Positions 9,162-39,645 of a stretch of DNA of 64,000 nucleotides are shown one piece after another. The notes under the pieces were generated by a model. That model searched no databases, was not told the DNA's origin, and saw only the letters and a program-made list of their open reading frames with translations. Source of the stretch: Planctomycetaceae bacterium (lineage in GTDB: Bacteria; Planctomycetota; Planctomycetia; Planctomycetales; Planctomycetaceae); assembly GCA_041749515.1 (NCBI GenBank), contig JBGTBF010000043.1, forward strand, positions 85,526 through 149,525, written 5' to 3'. The position numbers and the translations under genes were made by a program. How positions within the stretch are numbered: position 1 is the stretch's first letter; every line of letters begins with the position of its first letter.

Positions 9162-11924
9162 TTAATCGACAAACAAAAACTCGTTCGACATCAGCACCGC
9201 TTGGGCAAGTTCTTTGAGTGAATGTGTTTTCAGATAGTTACTGAACAGGTCGAGTTCTTGCGATACAGGCTCTCTGGTGTAAGCAAGTTGAATCAGTTGA
9301 GCAGGAATATCTGCAGGTGCTGCGGCGGATTTCTCGACCCGCTCGGTCAGGGAAGCGGCAATTTCTTCTGCAAAATTCGAGTTCATCGCAAAGAGGGCTT
9401 GTTGAGGAACAGTCGTAAGCGGCCGACCTGGGCTGGAACTGTCCGGCGAAGGGAAGTCAAATGTTCGTAACAGACTGGAAACATTATTGCGATCAATCAA
9501 CCCGTACACCGAACGGCGATTCGGAGACGGTTCTTTTTCCAGATCAACGGGCCGTCCTCCAGGGGTTGTGTCAAGTCGTCCGGAAACCGCAAGCATCGTG
9601 TCCCGCATCGCTTCGAAGTCGAGGCGTTGACGATTTTGCTTCCAGAAAAGTTGGTTGGCGGGATCAACCTGGCGTCCCTCTGGTCGATCGTTAGACGACT
9701 GCAGGTAGACGCTGCTCAGCATGATTTCTTTGTGGAGTTTCTTCAACGACCATCCATGTTCATGAATCAGGCTCCACGCTAAGTAGTCGAGTAGCTCGGG
9801 ATGAGAAGGAACTTCACCACGTAACCCGAAATCGCTGGGAGTTGCTACCAGAGGAGTTCCAAAGTGATACGACCAGACGCGATTCACAATCACTCGAGCA
9901 GTCAGTGGATTGTCCGCAGCCACAACTTTTTGAGCGAACTCCAAACGTCCCGAGCCTTTCTCGAACTTCGAATTTGGATTCGGATCCAGCAGATGCGGCA
10001 ACCGACGTGGGACACGGTCTCCGTTTCGACCTGCGGTCCCCCTCAAAAAGATATGCGGTTCGACCGGGTTATCTTTATCAACCAGCACCATCGAGCGCGG
10101 CGGAGCATCAGGTGAATTCACATTCCACTCGCTGATCTTGGATTCAAGCTTTTTCAACTCGTCTCGATTATCGCGCTCGAACAACGGAGAGTCCCCGTTG
10201 AGCGGCAAATCGGTAATCGACTTTGGCCCGTCAAACAACTTTCGAAACGCATCAACTCCGGGATCATCGAACTGCGTTGATTCCGGCTTCTCGGCTTTCA
10301 ATGTGTTCCATGCAGCCACAGTCTCCTCAAAGACCTTCCCAAATACACGCACCACTTCTTCATGATTTTGTGGCTTGGCTTCAACCAACTTCGCAGAAAT
10401 CAGAGCTTGCTCCGGGCTGTGTTCCTGTTCCAGCTTTTGGATCACCTCAGACAGATTCTCGGGCGAAGTATTCAGCAACTCGCTGAGCAGTGACAGAATC
10501 GGTTCTTTTTCTTGAACGCGTTCCAGGGAAAAACGTTTCCAGTATTCTTTTGTGCGGTCACGCGGTGGTCCGTGGGTGAATTTCACCTCTTTAGGAACTT
10601 TGCCCAGGTCCACTGCAACCGCAAGCAGGTAATCCAGCGCCTGTTCTTTCGCCTTGTTGAGCAGGTCGAGATGGGCGGAAGTGCTGTAGTCGGTACGATC
10701 TTTTTCCCGCTTGCCAAGCTCCGCATAAAACGCTGCATACTTCGGATCCTGCTGGTCGATCTCGCCGATCAGCGGAAGATCACCCGGCTCTGTACTGCTG
10801 TTAAACATTCCATACAGGGAATAATAATCAGCGGTCGGAATCGGATCGTACTTGTGATCATGACACCGCGCACACGCGACCGTCATTCCCATCAGTCCTC
10901 TGGTAACAACATCAATGCGGTCGTCTATAATATCGGGTTCCCGATTTAGGAAACGCGGGCCGATGGTCAAAAAACCAAGAGCTGCCAGGCGCGGATCATT
11001 CTTGGAATAACCGAGTTGATCCGCCGCAATTTGCTCCATCAGAAATTGATCATAGGGAATGTCGTTGTTCAGGGAATCAATCACATAATCGCGGTAAGTG
11101 TAAGAGTAGGGGTAAAATCGATTCTCGGTGAAGACGTAACCTTTGGTGTCTGCATAGCGTGCAATATCGAGCCAATAGCGGCCCCATCTCTCTCCGTAGC
11201 GTGGACTGACCAAAGAGCGATCGATCAATTCTTCGATCGCCTGCGGGGATGCGTTGGCGGCGAATTTTTGAGCCTCTTCGTAAGTGGGGGGAACACCAAG
11301 CAGGTCGAACGAAATCCGTCGCATCAGAACGTGCTGCGAGGCTTGGGGACTGAGTGTGAGATTCTTTTCGGCAAGTTTCGCAACGATGAAGCGGTCGATA
11401 TTAGAAAGGGACTGACCTTCTGGAGCAGCAGGAATTGCAGGAAGTTCGATCGGTTTATAGGACCAGTGCTGAGCGGAAATGGCCTGGTAGTCGAGCGAGC
11501 CATCTGCGTGTTTGGGCAAGCCCGCTTTTACTTCTTCTTCAGCTTCTTCCGGCCAGTAAGCTCCCTGCTCGATCCAGGTTTTCAGCAACTGTATCTCCTC
11601 GTCCTTCAGCTTGCCCTCGGGAGGCATCTGGGTGTCGAGTTCGTTGTATTGAACCACTTGCCACAAACGACTTTCATCGAGCTTACCCGGGACTATGATC
11701 GGCCCCGAGGCATTGCCTTTGAAGACATGCACCTTACGATCCAGTCTTAAATCGCCCTGCTGTTTTTTATCGTTGTGGCAATTGAAACAATGCGTCGCCA
11801 ACAGCGGACGAACTTTGGTTTCGAAGAATTGTTCCTGTGCTTGCTTCGCATCTTCGGCAAGGATCAATGAAGAACACAATTGAACAAGTACAAGCGTCGT
11901 AATGAATCGGATCATGGCGAGCAA
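9162..11924 (-). CDS. Planctomycete cytochrome-c-domain protein of the PSCyt1/DUF1549/DUF1553 (PSD1) family
   Basis: N-terminal signal peptide. A CxxCH-containing PSCyt motif (THCFNCHNDKKQQGDLRLD) and a second Cys/His-rich motif (CARCHDHKYDPI) typical of DUF1549/DUF1553 proteins. 920 aa. Confidence 0.85.
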   Translation of the reverse strand: MLAMIRFITTLVLVQLCSSLILAEDAKQAQEQFFETKVRPLLATHCFNCHNDKKQQGDLRLDRKVHVFKGNASGPIIVPGKLDESRLWQVVQYNELDTQMPPEGKLKDEEIQLLKTWIEQGAYWPEEAEEEVKAGLPKHADGSLDYQAISAQHWSYKPIELPAIPAAPEGQSLSNIDRFIVAKLAEKNLTLSPQASQHVLMRRISFDLLGVPPTYEEAQKFAANASPQAIEELIDRSLVSPRYGERWGRYWLDIARYADTKGYVFTENRFYPYSYTYRDYVIDSLNNDIPYDQFLMEQIAADQLGYSKNDPRLAALGFLTIGPRFLNREPDIIDDRIDVVTRGLMGMTVACARCHDHKYDPIPTADYYSLYGMFNSSTEPGDLPLIGEIDQQDPKYAAFYAELGKREKDRTDYSTSAHLDLLNKAKEQALDYLLAVAVDLGKVPKEVKFTHGPPRDRTKEYWKRFSLERVQEKEPILSLLSELLNTSPENLSEVIQKLEQEHSPEQALISAKLVEAKPQNHEEVVRVFGKVFEETVAAWNTLKAEKPESTQFDDPGVDAFRKLFDGPKSITDLPLNGDSPLFERDNRDELKKLESKISEWNVNSPDAPPRSMVLVDKDNPVEPHIFLRGTAGRNGDRVPRRLPHLLDPNPNSKFEKGSGRLEFAQKVVAADNPLTARVIVNRVWSYHFGTPLVATPSDFGLRGEVPSHPELLDYLAWSLIHEHGWSLKKLHKEIMLSSVYLQSSNDRPEGRQVDPANQLFWKQNRQRLDFEAMRDTMLAVSGRLDTTPGGRPVDLEKEPSPNRRSVYGLIDRNNVSSLLRTFDFPSPDSSSPGRPLTTVPQQALFAMNSNFAEEIAASLTERVEKSAAAPADIPAQLIQLAYTREPVSQELDLFSNYLKTHSLKELAQAVLMSNEFLFVD

Positions 11925-29875: not shown

Positions 29876-32800
29876 ATGTGGCGTCGAGAAGTAATGTGGA
29901 TGTTGGTTTTTCTGTTACTGCCGACGATGGTCCGCGCGGACGCAATCACGGATTACAATCTGGTCGTGACATTCTACAAACAGCAAAAGTGGAAGCTCGC
30001 CGGTGAGACCGCAGAGGACTTCATCAAGAAGTATCCCACTCATGAAAAAGCTCCACTTGCAAGATTGTACTGGGGACAGGCTCTGGTGCATCTGCAAGAC
30101 TTTAATACCGCCCGAAATGAGTTTCGGCTGTTTGTCAAAAGTTCTCCGGAGCATCCAGATCGTCCGCTGGGTATGTACCGGATCGGCGAATGCAGCTACT
30201 TCTTAAACGACTTTACCAGCGCCGAACAGGAACTGATCCTGTTTCTGAACCAGAACCCCAAACACGAATTGACGGAGTGGGGGTATCTGTATTTGGGCGA
30301 GACGCAGTTTCGCCTGAACAAGTTCGCGGAGTCTGCGAAAACGTTCGACCAGTATCGGACGGCCTTTCCCGCAGGTCGACTCATCGACGATGTTGAGTTT
30401 GGACTGGCCCGGGCGGAAGAAGCACTCGGGAATTCTGCGAAGGCGATTGAGCTGTATCAGAACGTTGCGAATCGCACGAGCAGCCCACGCGCTCCAGAGG
30501 CACAGTTCAACATTGGTTCCCGGTATTTTGATGAAAAGCAATATCAACAGGCTGCAACCGCGTTTGAAACCGTCGCACAGAAATTTGCCGAACATGCTCT
30601 TGCTCCGCTCGCTTTTTTAAATGCAGGTTATGCTCGCTATTATTTACAGGAATATCAGCCTGCAATTGCCTTGTTCGAACAAGCATCCAAAGACCCGCAG
30701 CAACAAGAGACCGCGCGCTACTGGGTGGGCTTGAGTCAAAAGTCTATCGGAGAATTTGAGGCGGCGAGCAACACATTTGAAACTTCGTTAAGGGAAAAAC
30801 CGCAGCAAACGCTCGCTGAGAATTTGTACTTTCAATGGGGCGATGCGGAACTTCGCAAGCGTGACTTTAAGCGGGCGATTCAGATCTTCAATCAGACCGT
30901 TGAGAAATGGCCGCAGGGAGACTTCGCCGATGATGCGTTGCATTCGGCATGTGAGGCTGCATTTCAATTACAGGACTACAAACTTGCAGAACAAATCCAC
31001 CAGAAGTTTCAGCAGGACTATGCAACCAGCGGTTTGAGACTGTTGCAGGATTTGCTTTATGGACGTTTGCTCGTTGCCGAGGGTGATGCTCTTGAAGACA
31101 AATCTGAGGCGCTGAAAAAGTTCGAACTGGCTGCCACTTTATTGAAAGAAGTCGCGGAGAAATCGACCGTCGATCTCACGTCTAACGAGGCTCGTTATCA
31201 ACTCGCCCGCAGTTACGAGCGTATGGAAAAGGATGCAGAGGTTGTCGCCACTTTGGAAGTGTTGCTCACCAGGCAAGAGCTCATGACCCCTCAGGCAATT
31301 CAAGATTCTTTGCTGCTCCAGGCCAATTCGCTGTTGAGATTGAAAGAGTATCCAAAAGCAATTATCAGTTATCAGAAATTTATTGACAGCGCCGGTTCCC
31401 CCGAAGAGAAACTGCAAGGCCTGGCAGGGATTGCAAGTGCTCAGATTGCAACGCAAGACTGGGAGAGTTTGAAGCAATCGCTCACCGAACTTGCAAGTTC
31501 TGATCCCGCAGATACGCAACTCAGCCGAATAGCGGTCGCAGCAGGTGATGCCGCTTTTGATGCTGGGTTATGGGTTCCCTCGGCAGAGTTCTTTCAGCAG
31601 GTCGTCAAACTCGGTGAAGCGGGCAGATACTATATTGTAGCGCTCTCGGGGCTGGGACACGCACAGTATGAGCAGGCACAATTCAAAGCGGCAGCGGAAT
31701 CGTTCGAGCAACTGACCAAGATCAATGTCGAAGATAAGGTATTGCTCTCACATGCAGTTTACATGGTAGGTTTGTCCCAGAGACGTGCAGAGCAAATCGA
31801 GACTGCGCTCGTGTGGTATCAACGGGGGGCGAAGGACTTTTCGATTGCCAACAAAGAGGCTCCCACAGAAACCGATCTTAAGATCGGCCTGAATGCATAT
31901 CGTTCTGCAAAAGGGGGAGCACGCACTGCTCGCGAAGTCGACAAGACGGAGCTCGCCGATCAACTCTACTCTGCTGCTTACGGGGAACTCAAGAAGCAAC
32001 CGCTCGCCGAACAAACGGAACTTGATCTGCTTATCAATGAATGGGCTGACCTGAGCTACAACGCAGAGAACTACGCACGCTCTGACGAGTTATATGCCCT
32101 GCTTGTCAAAGAGCGTCCGGAAAGTGATCTTGCTGACGATGCCCAGTTAATCCTGACCGAGAGTTTGCGATATCAAGGCAACCTGGAAGAAGCCCTCGCG
32201 AAGTTTCAACAACTTGCCGAAGCGAACACCTCTGATGATTTCGTCAAGCAACGCTCGCTGGTCCACCTGCTGGATTTAGCGGCAGAGAAGTCAGACTGGC
32301 AAAGCGTTTTAAGCTCTGCGGAAAAGTTGGAAGAGGCATTCCCAAACAATAACCATCAAACATATATCAAGTACCGCATGGGTGAAGCGCAGTTGCAATC
32401 GAAGAATTACCCCAAGGCGATCGAGATTTTAGAGGCACTTAAAGTCGAACTTTCCGCAGATCTTCTGAATGCCCCCCCCTGGTGGCCAGAAGCCTGGTTA
32501 CTTTTGGGGGAAGCACTTTTTCGCACAAAGAACTACTCCGAACTCGACAAAGTGGTTGCTGAACTCAAAGAAAAAGCGGCCGCATCCCCTCTTATTTATC
32601 GGGCAGATGCATTGGTCGGGCAAAGCTTTGAAAGTCAGGCAAAGTTCGAAGAGGCCCGCGAAGCGTATTTGAGAGTGGTAGACTCAAAAGACGGAAATGG
32701 AACAGAAACCGCCGCAGAATGTCAATTTCGCATTGCAGAATCTTATCTAAAGCAGAAGAATTACCAAACAGCTTACAAAGAGTACTACAAAGTTTACGCT

Positions 32801-33004
32801 GGTTATGAATCAGAGACATACGAACCCGCTGCGCTCTATCAAGCAGGTCGTTGTGATTCCTCTCTGAAAAACTGGCGAGGTGCGGTATTATCCTACAAAA
32901 CACTTATCGACGAATTCCCAAACAGTGAGTATGTTGAAAAAGCTGAGCAGGAAATCGCAGAGATTCAGAAGGCGTTTCCAGAATTAAAAGAGACATTGCA
33001 GTAG
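29876..33004 (+). CDS. Large tetratricopeptide-repeat (TPR) protein with signal peptide, 1042 aa
   Basis: Over 20 TPR-like helical hairpins (…AKAIELYQNVA…, …YYLQEYQPAIALFEQA…). Signal peptide MWMLVFLLLPTMVRA. First gene of an apparent operon. Confidence 0.8.
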   Translation: MWRREVMWMLVFLLLPTMVRADAITDYNLVVTFYKQQKWKLAGETAEDFIKKYPTHEKAPLARLYWGQALVHLQDFNTARNEFRLFVKSSPEHPDRPLGMYRIGECSYFLNDFTSAEQELILFLNQNPKHELTEWGYLYLGETQFRLNKFAESAKTFDQYRTAFPAGRLIDDVEFGLARAEEALGNSAKAIELYQNVANRTSSPRAPEAQFNIGSRYFDEKQYQQAATAFETVAQKFAEHALAPLAFLNAGYARYYLQEYQPAIALFEQASKDPQQQETARYWVGLSQKSIGEFEAASNTFETSLREKPQQTLAENLYFQWGDAELRKRDFKRAIQIFNQTVEKWPQGDFADDALHSACEAAFQLQDYKLAEQIHQKFQQDYATSGLRLLQDLLYGRLLVAEGDALEDKSEALKKFELAATLLKEVAEKSTVDLTSNEARYQLARSYERMEKDAEVVATLEVLLTRQELMTPQAIQDSLLLQANSLLRLKEYPKAIISYQKFIDSAGSPEEKLQGLAGIASAQIATQDWESLKQSLTELASSDPADTQLSRIAVAAGDAAFDAGLWVPSAEFFQQVVKLGEAGRYYIVALSGLGHAQYEQAQFKAAAESFEQLTKINVEDKVLLSHAVYMVGLSQRRAEQIETALVWYQRGAKDFSIANKEAPTETDLKIGLNAYRSAKGGARTAREVDKTELADQLYSAAYGELKKQPLAEQTELDLLINEWADLSYNAENYARSDELYALLVKERPESDLADDAQLILTESLRYQGNLEEALAKFQQLAEANTSDDFVKQRSLVHLLDLAAEKSDWQSVLSSAEKLEEAFPNNNHQTYIKYRMGEAQLQSKNYPKAIEILEALKVELSADLLNAPPWWPEAWLLLGEALFRTKNYSELDKVVAELKEKAAASPLIYRADALVGQSFESQAKFEEAREAYLRVVDSKDGNGTETAAECQFRIAESYLKQKNYQTAYKEYYKVYAGYESETYEPAALYQAGRCDSSLKNWRGAVLSYKTLIDEFPNSEYVEKAEQEIAEIQKAFPELKETLQ

Positions 33005-33028
33005 ACCTTTCAAAGAAAGAAGACGACG

Positions 33029-33964
33029 GTGAAGGATCAATCGAGTTTCTTGTGCAAGGCAAGGTTGCCAAAGCGAAAAGTTGTCTCAGCGCTGCTGACG
33101 CTGATCGTGCTTGCGATTTCAACAAGTCGCAGCAGCGCTCAGGAGATCGACCTGGGGATTCCCTCTCCAGCCCCTGTCGGCGTGCCTGAAGGTCTCCCTG
33201 TTCAGCCGCCCACAGCACTCGAAACGCCTGCAACCGAAGAGGATTCTATCTCTTCCGGGATTGCCGGATTGCTCCCCACAAATATCCTGCAACTTGCAAA
33301 ATCGCTGAACTACTGGATCATCCCATTTGGTCTTGCGACGTTTATTGCCCTGTGGTTTACCACTGAGAGAATTGTCGTTCTGCGTCGTGGTCGCGTGATT
33401 CCCCGACCGTTCGTTCGAAAGCTTTTACAGCTTCTCGAAGATGGCGAAATTGACCGCGAAGAAGCGATTCAGGTTTGCGAAGAAAACAACAGTCCCGTCG
33501 CACATGTGTTTGCCCACGGGGTACGCAAATGGGGGAAACCAAGCGTCGAAGTCGAACAGGCCATCATTGACGGTGGAGAGCGTCAGATCAGCGTATTACG
33601 CAAGCACCTGCGGGTCATCAACGGTGTCGCCACAGTCACACCGCTGATTGGGTTATTGGGTACGGTTTGGGGAATGCTGGAAGCGTTTAACAAAATTGCT
33701 GAAGCAGGTGCGAAGGGAAATACGGATCAACTCGCTTCAGGGATCGCACTGGCACTGGTCACCACAGCTGCCGGTCTGGTAATCGCCATCCCGTCGCTGA
33801 TTGCCTACATGTACTTATCCGGACGTGTTGATTCGCTCGTTATGGAAATGGACGATTTAGCCCAGAAGGTGATCCAAAATATTTCTGCTGAGGGACTCTC
33901 CGAACGAACGACCCGCCCTCGAAAGATTCCTAAAGAAAACCCTTCCTCGAAAAAAGCGGTGTAA
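33029..33964 (+). CDS. MotA/TolQ/ExbB proton-channel family protein
   Basis: Three TM helices with the family's conserved core (…[18 protein letters not shown]…[32 protein letters not shown]). N-terminal signal-peptide-like segment. 25 bp downstream of the TPR gene. Confidence 0.85.
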
Positions 33965-34083
33965 TTACCGACCAGAACTCATCCGGTTTCTGAATAGATT
34001 TGTCTGCAAAGCCTCATCTTTCCAAAATCTGGTGCCAAAAGTCAGGCTTGTAAAAGTCAGACTTACAAAAAGAATTTCTTTCG

Positions 34084-35151
34084 ATGCGATTTCAAAAAAA
34101 CATCTCTCCGCCCCCTTATCTAAATCGACGCGATCAGTACCGAATGCTGATGATGGTGGGACTGTTGATGCTGATTGTCATCGGGATCAAATACACCGCA
34201 GACCCCGCTAACTGGCAATGGTTTTTTAATCTCGATAAACAACCTGCACAAACCGAGATGGAGTTGAAAGAACTCAAACTTGACGATATCGATTTTCAGA
34301 TCAAGCCGGAAAGGAACGGCTCTCTGCCCGCTGAGACTTTCATTGCACTCGAATCAGAGACCACTCCGCAAGTAGTCTTTGGCTCTAAAAATGAGATTGG
34401 TCAATTCCCCAAAGAACTTCTGTCCGACATCAAAGACCAACAGCTCAAACTTCTTCGTCGCGAGCAACCCGCACTCGAAGCGATTGTCCAGCACCTTAAA
34501 TCCACCTCGCAACAAGAATTGGAAGATGCTGCAAACAGATCGGTCGGTTTTCGCGTCATAAATGTCGAACCAGATGCTTATCGCGGTATGCTGATAAGAA
34601 TTGAAGGGACTCTTCGTAACTTTACTTCCTTTCCGTTCGGCGACAGTCAGACAACTGCTGACGATCTGTATCAGGGCTGGGTCTTTACGGACGATTCTGG
34701 CAGCAAACCATGGATGATTCTCTGCACCGAAAAACCGACCGGATTGGAACTGCAAGAGCGAATGGAAGTTCCTATGACCGTCTCCGGTTACTTCTTCAAG
34801 CGCTACGGGTATCAGTCCGAAGGAGGCATGAACGTTGCTCCGTTGCTGATTGCAAAGTCAATCTCTCTACAACCGATTCGGCAAGCGCGACATGTGCGCA
34901 ACGAAAACATCAGCCTGTATGTGATCTGGGTACTGGGCATAATTTCGCTCCTCTTCGCTCTCATGATTTGGAGATTCTACGCCAGCGATAAAAAATACGA
35001 GAACAGCCACCTCGCTCAGATTGCCGAGTCGAGAAGAGACGCAGACCCCGAAGCGATCAAGCAACTCAACCTGTTGCCAACCATCGATCAACAGGGATTG
35101 TTCAAACATATTCGTGAATCGGACAACAGCGAAGAAAAGCTTAACCCGTAG
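34084..35151 (+). CDS. Hypothetical 2-TM membrane protein (N- and C-terminal anchors, about 250-aa periplasmic domain)
   Basis: Helices at MLMMVGLLMLIVIGI and LYVIWVLGIISLLFALMIW. No ExbD/TolR or TonB signature. Confidence 0.6.
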   Translation: MRFQKNISPPPYLNRRDQYRMLMMVGLLMLIVIGIKYTADPANWQWFFNLDKQPAQTEMELKELKLDDIDFQIKPERNGSLPAETFIALESETTPQVVFGSKNEIGQFPKELLSDIKDQQLKLLRREQPALEAIVQHLKSTSQQELEDAANRSVGFRVINVEPDAYRGMLIRIEGTLRNFTSFPFGDSQTTADDLYQGWVFTDDSGSKPWMILCTEKPTGLELQERMEVPMTVSGYFFKRYGYQSEGGMNVAPLLIAKSISLQPIRQARHVRNENISLYVIWVLGIISLLFALMIWRFYASDKKYENSHLAQIAESRRDADPEAIKQLNLLPTIDQQGLFKHIRESDNSEEKLNP

Positions 35152-35556
35152 TGCCTTGTCTGGTTTTGTTGATTGGGGGACAGCTCGACGAAATGCGTGA
35201 TGTTGTCGTTTAATCCACGTCCACTCCACTTTACAAAAAAGGTAAAGGAATTCCGCGTTCCCCCCGATCTGAAAGCAGGAGCGATTTCAGCAGTCGCCAC
35301 GCGCTCGCCTTTGACGTGTTTGCCCGGAGATGAAGATCAACTCTTTTTGAACTCAAACTCAGGAGTTTTCATCGCTTACGAAAATGTGAAATATCGGTTT
35401 GAACTGACCTCAGTTGTTTTACGTTTGGTCTCCGGGAGGGTAGGATTTGAGAATTCACAGAGATGTCTTGATAAAACACAAAATTGCAGCCGACGGTTCC
35501 CTTCACGGAAACCTGCATCACAGTTATTAAACCTCACATTCACGAAAGGCATAGTC

Positions 35557-36678
35557 ATGGGACTCTTCGATAAACTACGCGCAGAATTGATCGACATCAT
35601 CGAGTGGGTCGATGATTCCAGACACACGATTGCCTGGCGATTTCCTCGCTATCATAACGAAATTAAGAACGGTGCGCAGTTGATCGTGCGGCCCGGACAG
35701 ATGGCGGTATTTGTGCATCGCGGTCAACTTGCCGATGTGTTTGAGCCGGGACACTATGATGTTAAAACAGACAACCTGCCAATTCTCAGCACAATTGCAG
35801 GCTGGAAATATGGTTTCAACAGCCCCTTCAAAGCAGAAGTCTATTTCGTAAATACCCGGCAAATCACCGACCTGAAATGGGGAACTCCCAATCCGGTGAT
35901 GCTTCGTGATGCAGACTTTGGTCCGATTCGACTACGGGCCTTCGGCACGTATTCCATGAAAGCGGTCGAACCGAAAGCCTTGTTGACCGAACTCATTGGC
36001 ACAGACTCGGAGTTTGAAGTCGACGAGATTAACGAACTCATGCGCGCGATCATTGCCTCTGCGTTTGCTGATCTTCTGGGGAGTTCACAGATCAGTGCCC
36101 TCGACCTGGCTGCCAATTATCGAGAGCTTTCAGAAAAACTCCGAGAGATGGTGATCGAACGAGTCGATGATGAGTACGGCCTTGACATCCCACAGTTCCA
36201 TATCGTCAATGTTTCGTTCCCTGAAGAGGTCGAAAAAGCACTTGATACCCGCTCCAGCATGGGAGTGATTGGAGACCTGAATCAGTTCCAGCAATTCCAG
36301 ATGGGAAAAGCGATGATGGCGGCTGCCGAAAACCAATCCGGTGGCGGAGCAGCTGAAGGCATGGGCCTTGGTATGGGATTCGCCATGGCCAACCGCATGG
36401 CAACCGGCATGGGTGGGCCAATGGGCGGCATGTCGGCCCCAATGGGACCACCTCCACTTCCAATGGAAATGTGGCACGTGGCAACTGGCGGAAAATCCGA
36501 TGGCCCCTATACAATTCAGCAGATGGCGCAGGGAGTTCAAAACGGACAATTACAAAAAGGGACGCTCGTCTGGAGCCAAGCTATCAGCAACTGGACCCCC
36601 GTCGAACAAGTCCCGCAACTTGCTCCTCTCTTCAACGCTGTACCACCATCACCGCCACCGATCCCGCCGGTTGATTAA
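35557..36678 (+). CDS. SPFH/band-7 family protein (Band_7_1/YdjI-like) with Gly/Met-rich linker and C-terminal GYF-like DUF4339 domain
   Basis: RBS aaagg before the ATG at 35557. N-terminus MGLFDKLRAELIDIIEWVDD. Linker GMGLGMGFAMANRMATGMGGPMGGM. C-terminus GPYTIQQMAQGVQNGQLQKGTLVWSQAISNWTPVEQVPQL. The ORF track's extended 5' start (35173) is unlikely. Confidence 0.75.
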   Translation: MGLFDKLRAELIDIIEWVDDSRHTIAWRFPRYHNEIKNGAQLIVRPGQMAVFVHRGQLADVFEPGHYDVKTDNLPILSTIAGWKYGFNSPFKAEVYFVNTRQITDLKWGTPNPVMLRDADFGPIRLRAFGTYSMKAVEPKALLTELIGTDSEFEVDEINELMRAIIASAFADLLGSSQISALDLAANYRELSEKLREMVIERVDDEYGLDIPQFHIVNVSFPEEVEKALDTRSSMGVIGDLNQFQQFQMGKAMMAAAENQSGGGAAEGMGLGMGFAMANRMATGMGGPMGGMSAPMGPPPLPMEMWHVATGGKSDGPYTIQQMAQGVQNGQLQKGTLVWSQAISNWTPVEQVPQLAPLFNAVPPSPPPIPPVD

Positions 36679-36686
36679 TACCCATT

Positions 36687-36717
36687 GTCGCTGACTTCTC
36701 CGAAGTCAGTGGTCAAC
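36687..36717. repeat. Stand-alone copy of the REP-like hairpin module (gtcg-ctgacttc-tcc-gaagtcag-tggtcaac), 8 bp after the SPFH gene stop
   Basis: The stem carries compensatory changes relative to copy A (CTGACTTC/GAAGTCAG versus CTGACCTC/GAGGTCAG). Flanks gtcg…tggtcaac are identical to copy A. Confidence 0.65.
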
Positions 36718-36805: not shown

Positions 36806-37831
36806 CTACTTTTCATTTAGGGGAACGTCCCGATATGCCTGATGACAGTTCATGCAGTTCTGACCGATCTGAGCAGTGCGAGTGCTGAGAGCTTCCGGGG
36901 GATAAGCTTGTTCCGTATCAGCTCCGAATTTTTTCAAATCGTCTTCCAGTTTTAGAGCGGCTATCTCGGACTCCTGTAACCACTGACGAAACTTCTCGGG
37001 TTGTTGCCGTACTTCTTCTGTTCTCAACATTTCAGTGAAATGCTCTCGCAGCATCAGCACTTCGTGAACCGGCACAATGTCAGGATGCGTTGGCGGCGTC
37101 TTCCAGCCAGCTTCTTCGATCAACTTCAGATGTTCGTATGCATGACCAATCGCCACCATCGCTTCGGCCATGGGAGGAACAGGAGCCGATTCGGGAAACT
37201 CGACTTGAAGTTCTTCAAGCAATGCGATGTCCAGCGGATGAGCCGTTTGAGCAGAAGCGAACAACCCTCGGTAATTCGGACTTGTCCCAGCAATCTTAAG
37301 AATTTGCATCCCCTGATGGGCTGGAATGAATCCTGCCGACACACAGGCCACGCTTGCAGCGACTGGGCTGCGATGCTTGCCGTGGTGGCAATGGATATAG
37401 ATTGGTCCTTCAAGTTCACGTACTGCTTTGGCCAGTTCTTTGGCGCGCTGTTCGGGAATTCCATCGTATCCGTGTGGCAGATGCACATATCGTAACCCGT
37501 ATTTTCTCGCCATCTCAACGTTCGGTCTCATTCCGTCAACGCTGATAATTGTTTTGATATTGAGATCCTTAAGTTCCTGGAAAGCTGCTTCTCCTTGGGG
37601 AAGACCACCAGAAATCACTTTCGCATGCACCTGCACAGGATTCGGCAGATGTTGGGATATTAACTTATGCGGGCCAGCAAATTCAGTAAGATTCGCTGCT
37701 CTTGTAGAAGCCGTTGCAGTAGAACTAGAACCAACATCACTCTCGACTGAGCTGGCAGGGGCAGCAGGCGATCCGTGATAGCATCCAAACGTTGCGACAA
37801 CGGCGAACGTGAGAGTGAGTCTTCTCAGCAT
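36806..37831 (-). CDS. Secreted dual-specificity/tyrosine-phosphatase-like protein (CX5R) fused to a C-terminal helical domain ending in a CxxCH heme-binding motif (class II cytochrome c'-like)
   Basis: Signal peptide MLRRLTLTFAVVATFGC. P-loop HCHHGKHRS. Last 16 residues are CMNCHQAYRDVPLNEK, preceded by about 120 aa of predicted helix. Confidence 0.7.
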   Translation of the reverse strand: MLRRLTLTFAVVATFGCYHGSPAAPASSVESDVGSSSTATASTRAANLTEFAGPHKLISQHLPNPVQVHAKVISGGLPQGEAAFQELKDLNIKTIISVDGMRPNVEMARKYGLRYVHLPHGYDGIPEQRAKELAKAVRELEGPIYIHCHHGKHRSPVAASVACVSAGFIPAHQGMQILKIAGTSPNYRGLFASAQTAHPLDIALLEELQVEFPESAPVPPMAEAMVAIGHAYEHLKLIEEAGWKTPPTHPDIVPVHEVLMLREHFTEMLRTEEVRQQPEKFRQWLQESEIAALKLEDDLKKFGADTEQAYPPEALSTRTAQIGQNCMNCHQAYRDVPLNEK

Positions 37832-38529: not shown

Positions 38530-39645
38530 ATGATGAATCGATTTCTATGTAGACTATTAGGAGTGATCGTTCTGTTGGGTGCTGCCGATTTGTGGGCACA
38601 GTCTGATCCGCCTCCCGTACCAGCTCCAATGCCATTGGAAACAAGGACCGTCACTGAAGAGGTGACGCGAACATTAGAAGATGGAACAACGGTAACAGAA
38701 CAGGTCACTCGAGAAGTGCCCGTTGAAACCGCACCCCGCGTTTTGGGTGCCCCCCAACAATCGATTGCCCCGAACGCGTCAGGTTCGCAAAACAGCGGAC
38801 AGTTCATGAATAATAACGCGTTCAATGGAGCTGGTGCTAGTGGTGTACCAAATTCGGGTGAAGTGAGAACAAACAACGATCAGCCTCCTCCCCCTAAAAC
38901 TCGGACTTTCATCGATGAATCCGGCAACCGTGTCACCGAGACAACCGTGTTTGTGCCTGTAAGGAGACTTCGACCGGATGGTTCAATCGAGACTGAGTAT
39001 GTCCCTGAACTAAGGTCTCAATCTGCGCCGAATTCCTCTGGATCGAACAACACTCAAGGATTCACTAACACCACTCAGTTTCCAGGCGGGGGGAACACTT
39101 CACCAGCTCTTCCTTCTAACCCCTCGATGAATGGAAACTCCGGCAGCGGAATCATCAACTCGGGAAGCCCCCCGATTGCGCCTCCTCGTACTGATGCGCC
39201 TCCTCATTCTGGATCGTCACCAAGTTTGTCCGGAAATCTCAGTTCAGGAACACCGCCGCTTGCTCCACCACAATCGCATGCTCAAGGGACCCCCAATAAT
39301 CCGCCAGTCGCCCCACCGGTGAATCATTCAGCTCATACGACATCACCGCTCAGTGATCCCCCCGGCGTGCCAGATCATGCCTCCAAGCACCCGATTGTCA
39401 TCATCAATAAAGCAAAGTACGGAGAGTCGGTGTTCTATGTGCTGATCGACGGAAATGTCAAATATCCAATGTCGATGAAACCCGGTGAGGAACAAAAGCT
39501 GGCCCATGACCGCAATTGGATTATTGAGTATCAGAGCGCTCCGGGAGAAATTAAGCAATATGAACTCAAAGGCAAACAACTCTACATCTTCCATCCTGAC
39601 GCAGCAGGGGACTGGAAGCTGTACATGGACAACCTCCGGGAATAA
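38530..39645 (+). CDS. Secreted Pro/Ser/Asn-rich low-complexity protein with an ordered C-terminal beta-rich domain
   Basis: Signal peptide (LLGVIVLLGAADLWA). Long PPxAPP / NSSGSNN low-complexity segment. C-terminal 90 aa look globular (HPIVIINKAKYGESVFYVLIDG...). Confidence 0.6.
   Translation: MMNRFLCRLLGVIVLLGAADLWAQSDPPPVPAPMPLETRTVTEEVTRTLEDGTTVTEQVTREVPVETAPRVLGAPQQSIAPNASGSQNSGQFMNNNAFNGAGASGVPNSGEVRTNNDQPPPPKTRTFIDESGNRVTETTVFVPVRRLRPDGSIETEYVPELRSQSAPNSSGSNNTQGFTNTTQFPGGGNTSPALPSNPSMNGNSGSGIINSGSPPIAPPRTDAPPHSGSSPSLSGNLSSGTPPLAPPQSHAQGTPNNPPVAPPVNHSAHTTSPLSDPPGVPDHASKHPIVIINKAKYGESVFYVLIDGNVKYPMSMKPGEEQKLAHDRNWIIEYQSAPGEIKQYELKGKQLYIFHPDAAGDWKLYMDNLRE

Follow-up and report, generated by a model that had tools for sequence, protein, structure and literature searches.

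Gene and Domain Organization

The window, i.e., the whole stretch of 64,000 nucleotides of Planctomycetaceae DNA that was analyzed, carries on its minus strand a gene for a protein of 341 amino acids which is composed, in this order, of an export signal with a lipobox-like end, a disordered tether, a DSP/PTP-fold domain, and a four-helix bundle (Table 1). The open reading frame, which had originally been proposed with no mention of its strand, represents a real gene, the full-length homologues of which form more than 3,499 clusters; furthermore, public data include a protein that is 100% identical to the window protein. The gene appears to be monocistronic. The SPFH/GYF gene ending at position 36678 is convergent with it, the gene starting at position 38530 is divergent from it, and its neighbors in the window are unrelated to it. 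Scanning for promoters and terminators yielded matches that were no more common than in shuffled sequence.

Table 1. Features of the fusion gene and the encoded protein (positions refer to the window).
Feature	Residues	Position	Strand	Basis
Whole gene	341 codons + TAG stop	36806..37831	minus	ORF list
Export signal (MLRRLTLTFAVVATFGC)	1-17	37781..37831	minus	direct sequence reading, by pattern
Disordered tether, Ser/Ala/Thr/Pro-rich	18-53	37673..37780	minus	pLDDT, alignment
DSP/PTP-fold catalytic domain	54-207	37211..37672	minus	
Candidate general-acid loop HLPHGYDG	117-124	37460..37483	minus	alignment to TpbA
P-loop HCHHGKHRS	147-155	37367..37393	minus	sequence and conservation
Ordered inter-domain linker, ending in conserved Pro-Pro	208-219	37175..37210	minus	pLDDT
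Class II (four-helix-bundle) c-type cytochrome domain	220-341	36809..37174	minus	
Candidate sixth (distal) heme ligand, Met	225	37157..37159	minus	conservation, helix position
Predicted heme attachment motif CMNCH	326-330	36842..36856	minus	sequence and conservation

The N-terminus (MLRRLTLTFAVVATFGC) combines a basic n-region with a hydrophobic core of 11 residues, followed by Gly-Cys at residues 16-17. Read from the sequence pattern alone, the Gly-Cys pair looks like a lipobox, and the signal is probably of the lipoprotein (SPII) type with Cys17 as the lipidated residue. The signal peptide of the original prediction also appears to be a property of the family: the pattern [GAS]-C follows the hydrophobic stretch in 100 out of 139 N-terminally complete homologues, with Gly-Cys as the family consensus at the signal end, and the remaining ones mostly start with ordinary signal-peptide-like N-termini. 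The tether behind the signal is unalignable among homologues and variable in length, and residues 15-48 reached pLDDT values below 50 in the AlphaFold2 model. Attachment of c-type heme requires export. Within the 64-kb window, neither a CcsA/CcmF WWD motif nor ccm/Ccs genes were found, an absence that tells nothing, as the window is a slice of a multi-megabase genome; a second c-type cytochrome gene is present there, encoding a PSCyt1/PSCyt2/PSD1 protein (9162-11924), and heme c maturation must therefore be encoded elsewhere in the genome.

The linker between the two domains is ordered (pLDDT 92-97), and the two-domain AlphaFold2 models (pLDDT 87.5 and 92.2; pTM 0.78 and 0.80) suggest that the domains are tightly joined. 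Both domains are backed by profile-level sequence homology.

Distribution and Genomic Neighborhood of the Family

The fusion is fixed in the family and not a one-off. At least 559 matches to it were obtained in species-level genomes, 817 clusters at 50% identity scored E<1e-30, and the best 120 matches listed span both domains, since query coverage was at least 82% in all of them. Almost all family labels are Planctomycetota, and the annotation is generic. In a set of homologues reaching down to 38% identity, at least 97% of those covering the respective position retained Cys148, Arg154, His147, His149, His150, His153, Met225, Cys326, Cys329, His330, and Arg334. No paper describing a PTP/DSP-cytochrome c fusion was found in the literature, nor a solved structure covering both domains, in agreement with the original view of an uncharacterized architecture.

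Rare longer family members possess additional N-terminal regions of the sulfatase, EEP, glutathione-peroxidase, DUF2231, or ChrB_C type. These are heterogeneous single representatives, for which gene-fusion artefacts are possible and which serve as hints at most; one of them is P0248, where a glutathione-peroxidase domain is added N-terminally.

The genomic neighborhood was evaluated by all-against-all BLASTP clustering of the open reading frames from 70 related loci, including flanks of ±8 kb. No conserved operon was detected across these 70 loci, and the most common neighbor, present at 12 of them, belongs to a generic, abundant planctomycete paralogue family. The recurrent neighbor families, as read from representatives, were DUF1501, PSCyt/DUF1553, DUF1559, sulfatases, and Ser/Thr kinases. 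These families are the most abundant paralogues of planctomycetes, and both their distance from the gene and their orientation varied. Neighboring genes were rejected as a functional hint, because they are abundant paralogues and form no operon at the 70 loci.

The Predicted Phosphatase Domain

The N-terminal domain shows the alpha/beta fold of PTP/DSP enzymes and, as originally described, contains a CX5R P-loop, in which Cys148 is predicted to be the nucleophile and Arg154 the phosphate clamp (kept in 269 and 270 of the 270 homologues, respectively). The length of this loop is that of the seven-residue C(X)5R type (C-H-H-G-K-H-R) in all 270 sequences. Its histidines are unusually invariant (H149 in 267, H150 in 264, and H153 in 268 out of 270), and the residue after Arg154 is Ser in 216, Gly in 50 (19%), and Ala in 4 homologues. 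In the general-acid loop, His117 and Tyr122 are present in 267 and 268 of the 270 sequences. Asp123 is the candidate general acid, as it aligns with Asp105, the general acid of TpbA (PMC4409338). An Asp occupies this position in 231 of the 270 homologues and is replaced in 14%, mostly by N, S, G, E, or H.

Every Pfam gathering threshold exceeds the score of the window protein; Tc-R-P was the best model for the phosphatase part with 22.9-25.0 bits (cut-off 27), and DSPc scored 16-18 bits (cut-off 33.5). However, the family profile of the N-terminal domain matched phosphatases of the PDB significantly (E 1.2e-5). Conservation within this domain is unusually strong, with a mean column identity of 72%.

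The active site is strongly basic and rich in histidine, which suggests a highly anionic substrate; a phosphoprotein and a small molecule with several phosphates would fit equally well. In its His/Lys-rich character, the P-loop appears to be as similar to those of inositol pyrophosphate phosphatases as to that of TpbA. Of the "secreted protein phosphatase" put forward originally, the phosphatase domain was recovered, whereas a protein substrate is a hypothesis, the P-loop being equally similar to those of small-molecule phosphatases. A periplasmic phosphoprotein substrate is also hard to envisage without periplasmic ATP.

The Cytochrome Domain and Its Predicted Heme Site

The roughly 120 helical residues noticed at the C-terminus correspond, in a confident AlphaFold2 model, to four long helices (220-240, 254-275, 279-304, and 313-334) that form a left-twisted four-helix bundle of about 120 residues, as in class II cytochromes. 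The CMNCH motif is the only CxxCH of the domain; it lies in helix 4, 12 residues from the C-terminus, and is directly followed by the class II signature x-x-Y-R, which includes Arg334. In alignments, this region pairs with CKACHDAYR in cytochrome c' and with the heme His region in b562. Estimated from residue frequencies, a CxxCH would occur by chance in about one in a thousand proteins of this size, and 247 of the 270 retrieved homologues keep it, which does not fit a chance motif. Most of the 23 homologues without CxxCH are shorter than 300 amino acids and stop before the motif. Accordingly, the columns of C326, C329, H330, and R334 (occupied by these residues in 252, 248, 249, and 250 of the 270 homologues) contain, besides one to five substitutions each, almost exclusively alignment gaps.

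The Pfam profile Cytochrom_C_2 (PF01322), proposed as a check on this assignment, gave a divided result. The window protein itself remained below the gathering threshold (19.1-21.3 vs. 26.5 bits), but 49 out of 64 family members matched at E<=0.01 (best value 9.3e-8), and the threshold was exceeded by other family members such as P0249 (36.2 bits). Overall, the assignment of a phosphatase joined to a class II cytochrome domain is supported by folds, motifs, and profiles.

Only five residues of the C-terminal domain are conserved at 97% or more, namely Met225, Cys326, Cys329, His330, and Arg334. Met225 is located five residues into helix 1 and is present in all 262 homologues covering this position. 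Conservation and position within the helix make it a candidate heme ligand, and because a Met at the start of helix 1 is invariant, a His/Met heme is favored over the five-coordinate heme of cytochrome c'. We regard ligation by His330 and Met225, giving a low-spin center similar to c-556 and b562, as the somewhat more probable arrangement. Some true cytochromes c' carry a non-ligating distal Met. When the C-domain profile was compared by hhalign with b562 and with cytochrome c' of A. xylosoxidans, the last helix alone was aligned and Met225 fell outside; a weak, insignificant HMMER sub-alignment of helix 1 placed Met7 of b562 one turn after Met225.

Functional Interpretation

The protein is best explained as an exported, redox-coupled periplasmic phosphatase-cytochrome fusion. 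For this explanation as a whole, we consider the chances to be about evenly balanced; the architecture and heme binding are very probable, and the redox-coupling mechanism is tentative. The protein would most likely be exported and tethered to a membrane via an N-terminal lipid and the flexible tether behind the signal. Cys148 would attack a phosphate ester held in the HCHHGKHRS loop and by Arg154, while Asp123 would donate the proton. One heme would be attached covalently to Cys326 and Cys329; its axial ligands would be His330 and, most probably, Met225, and it would exchange electrons with respiratory-chain carriers in the periplasm. The redox state of the heme could then be linked either to the catalytic thiolate, which is prone to oxidation, or to the active-site conformation, so that either the periplasmic redox state would switch phosphatase activity, or the catalytic cysteine would be kept in, or returned to, the reduced, active form in an oxidizing compartment.

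Phosphatases of the cysteine-based type are well known to be regulated by redox changes, the catalytic cysteines of PTPs being reversibly inactivated through oxidation. We count this redox theme, together with the glutathione-peroxidase domain of P0248, in favor of the redox-coupled phosphatase. Against it stand the finding that no genomic context links the two activities and, as far as the catalytic assignment is concerned, the replacements observed for Asp123 and for the Ser after Arg154, which may weaken the phosphatase reading.

In a gas-sensor reading that builds on the original prediction, the C-terminal domain could be a true cytochrome c', whose five-coordinate, high-spin heme would bind NO, CO, or O2 and thereby switch the phosphatase allosterically. 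The best PDB sequence match of the C-domain profile is in fact a cytochrome c' (3vrc, E 8.3e-5), hhalign yielded a probability of 88.6% for cytochrome c' of A. xylosoxidans, including an equivalent of the proximal Arg (Arg334 to Arg124), the best structural match is NaxLS, a cytochrome complex for which NO binding has been described, and the Pfam family of the domain bears the name Cytochrome C'. However, c-556 (1s05) and cb562 were matched at similar significance, and PF01322 includes the six-coordinate c-556/c-554, so that the Pfam name cannot discriminate. In cytochromes c', the distal residue varies (Leu, Phe, Met, Tyr), whereas axial ligands are invariant. Met225 is conserved as strictly as CxxCH, shares this invariance with CxxCH and Arg334 only, and looks like a sixth ligand. 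A gas sensor is thus rather unlikely, and redox sensing or electron transfer appears more likely than binding of NO, CO, or O2.

The N-terminal domain might also not be a phosphatase but the oxyanion-binding part of a periplasmic redox enzyme, in which the C(X)5R loop would bind arsenate, chromate, selenite, vanadate, or a related ion on Cys148 and the heme would supply or withdraw electrons, replacing the thiol cascades of cytoplasmic reductases of the ArsC/Acr2 type. C(X)5R loops bind oxyanions tightly and form the catalytic site in LMW-PTP/Cdc25-type arsenate reductases, and it is difficult to explain otherwise why a loop of this kind should be covalently joined to a redox cofactor. Five nearly invariant histidines plus Lys and Arg in the active site point in the same direction, as does the mean column identity of the domain, which would be expected of a small, fixed substrate. 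The rare member P0249 furthermore carries an N-terminal ChrB_C (chromate-resistance) domain, but this fusion is seen in a single cluster representative, for which an error in gene calling is possible. These reductions need at least two electrons, of which one heme supplies one; at the 70 loci, the gene is not recurrently accompanied by ars, chr, or other resistance genes; and no second conserved cysteine was found near Cys148 among the 270 homologues, Cys163, which follows 15 residues later along the next helix, being replaced in 17% of them. On balance, we judge an oxyanion reductase to be unlikely.

A further possibility is that the N-terminal domain represents a DUF442-type sulfurtransferase, i.e., a rhodanese on the PTP fold, in which Cys148 would carry a persulfide and the cytochrome would take up the electrons released when sulfide, thiosulfate, or persulfide is oxidized in the periplasm. 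Homologues are labeled "DUF442 family" by JGI, and the NCBIfam Blh sulfurtransferase model was weakly matched by 63, TIGR01244 by 49, and Pfam BLH_phosphatase by 32 out of 64 N-terminal domains. However, these NCBIfam and Pfam matches span only the part from the general-acid loop to the Cys, the scores of the window protein were far below the cut-offs (TIGR01244, 14.7-16.3 vs. 85.85 bits; NF040641, 19.5-21.4 vs. 625; PF04273, 14.6 vs. 26.1), TpbA/DSP models outscored the DUF442-type models, and the general-acid position holds a mostly conserved Asp. In the rhodanese/Cdc25 superfamily, a seven-residue loop fits phosphate and not sulfane sulfur. The loop of NMA1982, a characterized DUF442 protein, is of the shortened C(X)4R kind (C95-R-T-G-T-R100, rhodanese CRxGxR type; PMC10716126), as opposed to the C(X)5R found in 270 out of 270 homologues here. 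The DUF442 domains of Blh and of the C. pinatubonensis SQR are experimentally established rhodaneses that are fused to redox enzymes (PMC5823870 and PMC9163753), which lends the idea some plausibility, but no sqr, pdo, or sox neighbors recurred at the 70 loci and a gene for SQR or persulfide dioxygenase was absent from the window. The DUF442 assignment was rejected, as the family lacks the short C(X)4R loop by which DUF442 is defined, and a sulfurtransferase is very unlikely.

Finally, a vestigial or chance CxxCH in a heme-free helical accessory domain, to which the sub-threshold Cytochrom_C_2 score of the window protein could be attributed, has a negligible probability, considering that CxxCH, Met225, and Arg334 are the sole highly conserved residues of the domain across hundreds of divergent homologues, that other members such as P0249 pass the Pfam threshold, that the protein is probably exported, and that the fold agrees with class II cytochromes.

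Beyond the redox-coupled phosphatase preferred here, the two domains could constitute a single new catalytic unit, a PTP-type cysteine/oxyanion loop wired to a covalent heme, in either of two chemistries. In one, respiratory electrons would reduce an oxyanion bound to Cys148, which would make the protein a heme-dependent periplasmic reductase of the arsenate/chromate type; in the other, electrons would re-reduce the oxidized catalytic cysteine (sulfenic acid), resulting in a self-repairing phosphatase that could operate under the oxidizing conditions of its compartment. We know of no PTP-fold protein and no class II cytochrome for which either chemistry has been described, and we consider this proposal to be a long shot.

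Implications

If the phosphatase indeed carries its own covalent heme, the protein would by itself connect electron transport with the chemistry of phosphate esters outside the cytoplasm. All redox regulation of phosphatases that we know of proceeds via diffusible oxidants and separate reductases, and the protein would, to our knowledge, be the first in which a class II cytochrome c works as part of an enzyme and not as a free protein that carries electrons or binds gas. Hundreds of species in a phylum of environmental importance have retained the fusion. Moreover, the family is large, encoded by a single gene, and compact, with one heme and about 290 structured residues, which makes it an accessible model for asking how a reactive thiolate enzyme works in the periplasm, what the true targets of periplasmic "tyrosine phosphatases" such as TpbA are, and how redox changes of a heme are passed to a neighboring active site. 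In case the protein is just a generic phosphatase whose electron-transfer domain is decorative, the value of the analysis would be limited to improving the annotation of a "hypothetical protein" that is widespread in planctomycetes.

Comparison with Known Systems

The periplasmic dual-specificity tyrosine phosphatase TpbA (PA3885 of Pseudomonas aeruginosa; PDB 4r0s and 2m3v) is exported, as the window protein probably is, and both share a seven-residue P-loop with a His two positions past the Cys (HCKHGNNR in TpbA vs. HCHHGKHR here). However, the identity between the two proteins amounts to 17-18% only, and TpbA lacks a cytochrome domain, a lipobox, and the additional invariant histidines of the window family. 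A partner of the YfiBNR/TpbB type was not evident near the fusion gene, neither in the window nor at the 70 loci.

The atypical DSPs AtPFA-DSP1 (plant) and Siw14 (yeast), which are inositol-pyrophosphate phosphatases, possess a P-loop of the same seven-residue C(X)5R type (HCKRGKHRT). In contrast to the window protein, they are eukaryotic and cytosolic, have no heme domain, and lack an Asp in the region aligned to Asp123; their match to the window protein was not significant (E 0.08-1.3). The DUF442/BLH_phosphatase proteins (NMA1982, Blh, and the SQR-fused domains), related to the N-terminal domain through weak profile matches, offer a precedent for fusion of their fold with SQR and persulfide dioxygenase. 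They are cytoplasmic or membrane-associated and encoded in sqr/pdo operons, whereas the window protein is probably exported and its gene stands alone.

With the class II cytochromes (c', c-556/c-554, and the b562 fold), the C-terminal domain has in common the four-helix bundle, the CxxCH near the C-terminus, and the x-x-Y/F-R following it; the counterparts of Arg334 are Arg124 in cytochrome c' of A. xylosoxidans and the terminal Arg in b562. The His/Met-ligated c-556 and b562 have their Met near the start of helix 1, and the window protein has a Met at the same place. Known class II members are small, stand-alone, soluble monomers or dimers, whereas the domain studied here forms the C-terminal part of an enzyme. 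The best structural match of this domain, NaxLS (Kusta0087/0088; PDB 6r6n), originates from the anammox planctomycete Kuenenia stuttgartiensis, where it forms a free, small heme c heterodimer described as NO-binding; a significant sequence match between NaxLS and the window protein was not obtained. The native sixth ligand of NaxLS is reported to be a Cys, 6r6n representing a Cys-to-Met mutant, whereas the candidate for this position in the window family is a Met.

Sequence Features and Genomic Neighbourhood of the Fusion Gene

The open reading frame of the original prediction exists and is located on the minus strand, and both the CX5R P-loop and the C-terminal CxxCH were found in its translation and are kept across homologues; the motif coordinates were verified against the raw sequence.

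Positions of the fusion gene, its motifs (from the translation) and the neighbouring features
Feature	Position	Strand	Description
Fusion gene	36806-37831	minus	341 codons; ATG start, TAG stop
N-terminus of the fusion protein		minus	MLRRLTLTFAVVATFGC
Low-complexity stretch near the N-terminus		minus	Ser/Ala/Thr/Pro
Motif with Asp123	residues 117-124	minus	HLPHGYDG
P-loop	residues 147-155	minus	HCHHGKHRS
C-terminal extreme		minus	CMNCHQAYRDVPLNEK
SPFH/GYF gene	35173-36678	plus	SPFH/Band_7_1 domain (E 3.5e-100) and C-terminal GYF_2 (Pfam), Gly/Met/Pro-rich linker between them
Hairpin	36691-36709		CTGACTTC-TCC-GAAGTCAG; perfect, 8 bp
Divergent neighbour	38530-39645	plus	371 aa, secreted-looking; signal-like N-terminus MMNRFLCRLLGVIVLLGAADLWAQ
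Gene run just upstream of the SPFH gene	29876-35151	plus	1,042-aa TPR protein (YfiO/BamD-like stretch), MotA/ExbB-family proton-channel protein, 355-aa protein
'Planctomycete cytochrome C' gene	9162-11924	minus	PSCyt1/PSCyt2/PSD1 (DUF1549/DUF1553), 920 aa; two CxxCH motifs

Since the fusion gene is convergent with the SPFH/GYF gene and divergent from its other neighbour, it looks monocistronic. Across the 70 loci compared, no conserved neighbour was found; its neighbours in the window encode one SPFH/GYF, one ExbB-like and one long TPR protein, a hydrolase of the DLH family, Tex and further housekeeping functions. The gene run on the plus strand may be an envelope-associated cluster. No Pfam family was found for its 355-aa protein or for the divergent neighbour, in which Pro/Ser/Asn/Gly low-complexity sequence is abundant.

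The mechanically called TTG start of the SPFH/GYF gene is probably too early, because the Pfam match begins at residue 155, and MGLFDKLRAEL, farther inside the reading frame, resembles the true N-terminus. The hairpin lies in the 127 bp that separate the convergent genes, 13 bases past the stop of the SPFH/GYF gene. It is absent from the terminator-scan list since it is without a T-run; it may terminate transcription in both directions or affect RNA stability.

Family Size, Distribution and Conservation

More than 3,499 clusters of homologues were retrieved from 5.8 billion proteins (E ≤ 1e-3), and the best 120 of these matches all covered at least 82% of the query with identities of 51-66%. 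An exhaustive representative search yielded 817 clusters at 50% identity (E < 1e-30). Among the best 120 matches listed, those with a name belonged to Planctomycetota (Fuerstiella, Stieleria, Adhaeretor, Botrimarina, Calycomorphotria, Alienimonas, Roseiconus and Rhodopirellula). When a single genome was scanned for each species, at least 559 matches were obtained, and all but four of the 80 loci kept from them carried a Planctomycetota label; the four exceptions are MAGs, one of Synechococcales, one of Alcaligenaceae and two with no label but 'bacterium'. Homologues of approximately 50% identity are also encoded on two MAG contigs that bear the name Candidatus Kuenenia stuttgartiensis (L039 and L052); L039 at least has DUF1501 and PSCyt-type neighbours, as in other (Pirellulales-type) loci, and both contigs may be mis-binned.

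The fusion of the two domains is fixed across the family. A few representatives carry a further region N-terminal to the unit, namely a glutathione peroxidase (P0248), a ChrB_C chromate-resistance domain (P0249), a sulfatase (P0140), an EEP nuclease/phosphatase (P0235) or a DUF2231 membrane domain (P0228), which could be true triple fusions, and then a hint at a redox function or one on oxyanions, or else artefacts of gene calling.

Among 270 aligned homologues with identities down to 38%, His147 and Arg154 are invariant, followed by Cys148 and Gly151 (269 each), His153 (268), His149 (267), His150 (264) and Asp123 (231); the position after Arg154 is occupied by Ser (216), Gly (50) or Ala (4). 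The CxxCH is absent from 23 of the 270, most of which are shorter than 300 aa and stop short of the motif, and non-conserved entries in its columns are mainly alignment gaps. With a mean column identity of 72% versus 45%, the N-domain is under much stronger constraint than the C-domain.

Domain Assignment and Predicted Structure

Searches with the single sequence were only suggestive as to domain identity. Sub-threshold Pfam matches were obtained for Tc-R-P (22.9 bits), Y_phosphatase3, DSPc, Y_phosphatase2 and BLH_phosphatase in the N-domain and for Cytochrom_C_2 in the C-domain (residues 273-334 on profile positions 68-121 of 121, E 2.6e-3); NCBIfam returned weak matches to DUF442 sulfurtransferase models, and the best PDB sequence was the periplasmic phosphatase TpbA (E 0.006-0.02).

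The N-domain profile matched TpbA (1.2e-5), PRL-1 (5e-5) and the DUF442 protein 3gxg (2e-3), and, in Pfam, the 64 individual N-domains matched Tc-R-P (61), PTP-SAK (47), PTP-NADK (45), Y_phosphatase3 (39), BLH_phosphatase (32), DSPc (27) and Y_phosphatase2 (25). The C-domain profile, built from 64 sequences, matched cytochrome c' 3vrc (E 8.3e-5), c-type b562 variants (E ~1e-3) and cytochrome c-556 (E 6.5e-3), aligning ...nCkaCHqqfR with ...aCKACHQKYR; hhalign placed it on the haem-binding helix of A. xylosoxidans c' (P 88.6%). PF01322 was matched by 49 of the 64 C-domains at E ≤ 0.01 (best 9.3e-8), and some homologues exceeded its Pfam threshold. On the strength of these profile-level matches, the DSP/PTP and class II cytochrome assignments of the original prediction both stand.

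AlphaFold2, run with a 30-sequence alignment (pLDDT 87.5, pTM 0.78), predicted a disordered stretch (residues 1-50), an alpha/beta domain (54-207), an ordered linker and four long helices (220-240, 254-275, 279-304 and 313-334), in agreement with the expected helical C-terminus of about 120 residues. The model trimmed to residues 52-341 (pLDDT 92.2, pTM 0.80) fits a definite placement of the two domains relative to each other without proving it. No solved chain in Foldseek spanned both (query-normalised TM-score ≤ 0.43), and literature searches found no publication on a DSP/PTP-cytochrome fusion, in line with the earlier impression of an uncharacterised architecture. Both domains belong to well-known superfamilies, and the fusion is not categorically new; the family is real, widespread and experimentally tractable, and its database names are no more than generic ('protein-tyrosine phosphatase family protein', 'cytochrome c', 'DUF442 family' or 'hypothetical').

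Haem Ligation, Proposed Mechanism and Comparison with Known Systems

Class II cytochromes include the five-coordinate, gas-binding c' proteins, among which the distal residue is variable, and the six-coordinate His/Met proteins of electron transfer (c-556, c-554 and the b562 fold). Met225 is located in helix 1, five residues from its start, and His330 in helix 4, four residues from its end, which, given the up-down-up-down topology, would place both at the same end of the modelled bundle, in positions that match Met7 and His102 of b562; sequence methods gave no alignment of helix 1 to a known protein. Because of this shared bundle end, and because Met225 is as strictly conserved as the haem-attachment residues (262 of the 262 homologues covering it), His/Met ligation is favoured with moderate confidence. 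A c'-type gas sensor, as first proposed, is suggested by the 3vrc match but is unlikely in view of the strict conservation of Met225; the class II domain of that proposal was thus retained and its gas binding disfavoured.

The analysis shows the fold, the motifs with their conservation, the predicted export signals, with a lipobox in most homologues, and the fixed fusion. We infer a membrane-tethered periplasmic Cys-phosphatase, the activity of which would be linked to a haem c with His/Met ligation. This haem could sense the periplasmic or respiratory redox state, or serve as an entry point for electrons that keep or restore the active-site thiolate despite oxidising surroundings. Rather doubtful is a haem-linked oxyanion oxidoreductase, and equally so one joint catalytic unit, the haem of which would reduce a Cys-bound oxyanion or repair an oxidised cysteine. 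As to the ccm/ResBC maturation genes considered earlier, no WWD-motif gene was found within the 64 kb window. The 'planctomycete cytochrome C' gene encodes another c-type cytochrome, so that, judging from gene content, haem c maturation must exist in the organism; this gene also marks the window as planctomycete.

For Blh and for an SQR fusion, experiments have shown that the DUF442 domain, which has the PTP fold, is a rhodanese (PMC5823870, PMC9163753). The weak DUF442 matches of the N-domain would fit such a sulfurtransferase joined to a cytochrome, which is nevertheless improbable. The C-R-T-G-T-R loop of NMA1982, a characterised DUF442 protein, is of the rhodanese CRxGxR type. This loop is a shortened C(X)4R (PMC10716126), whereas in the fusion family the loop is without exception a C(X)5R of seven residues, as it is in TpbA (131-HCKHGNNR-138; PMC4409338), and Asp123 aligns with the general acid Asp105 of TpbA. 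This loop and Asp123 favour phosphate, or an oxyanion resembling it, as the group acted upon. That the CxxCH is a chance motif is scarcely credible, its residues being among the only five C-domain positions conserved to at least 97% (Met225, Cys326, Cys329, His330 and Arg334).

The DSP/PTP fold and C(X)5R loop of the proposed secreted protein phosphatase are thus upheld, and a protein substrate is unproven given the GKHR core of the loop. The PFA-DSPs likewise have a seven-residue C(X)5R loop (IHCKRGKHRT), and the GKHR core is common to inositol-pyrophosphate phosphatases, so that the His/Lys-rich loop hints at a highly anionic substrate.
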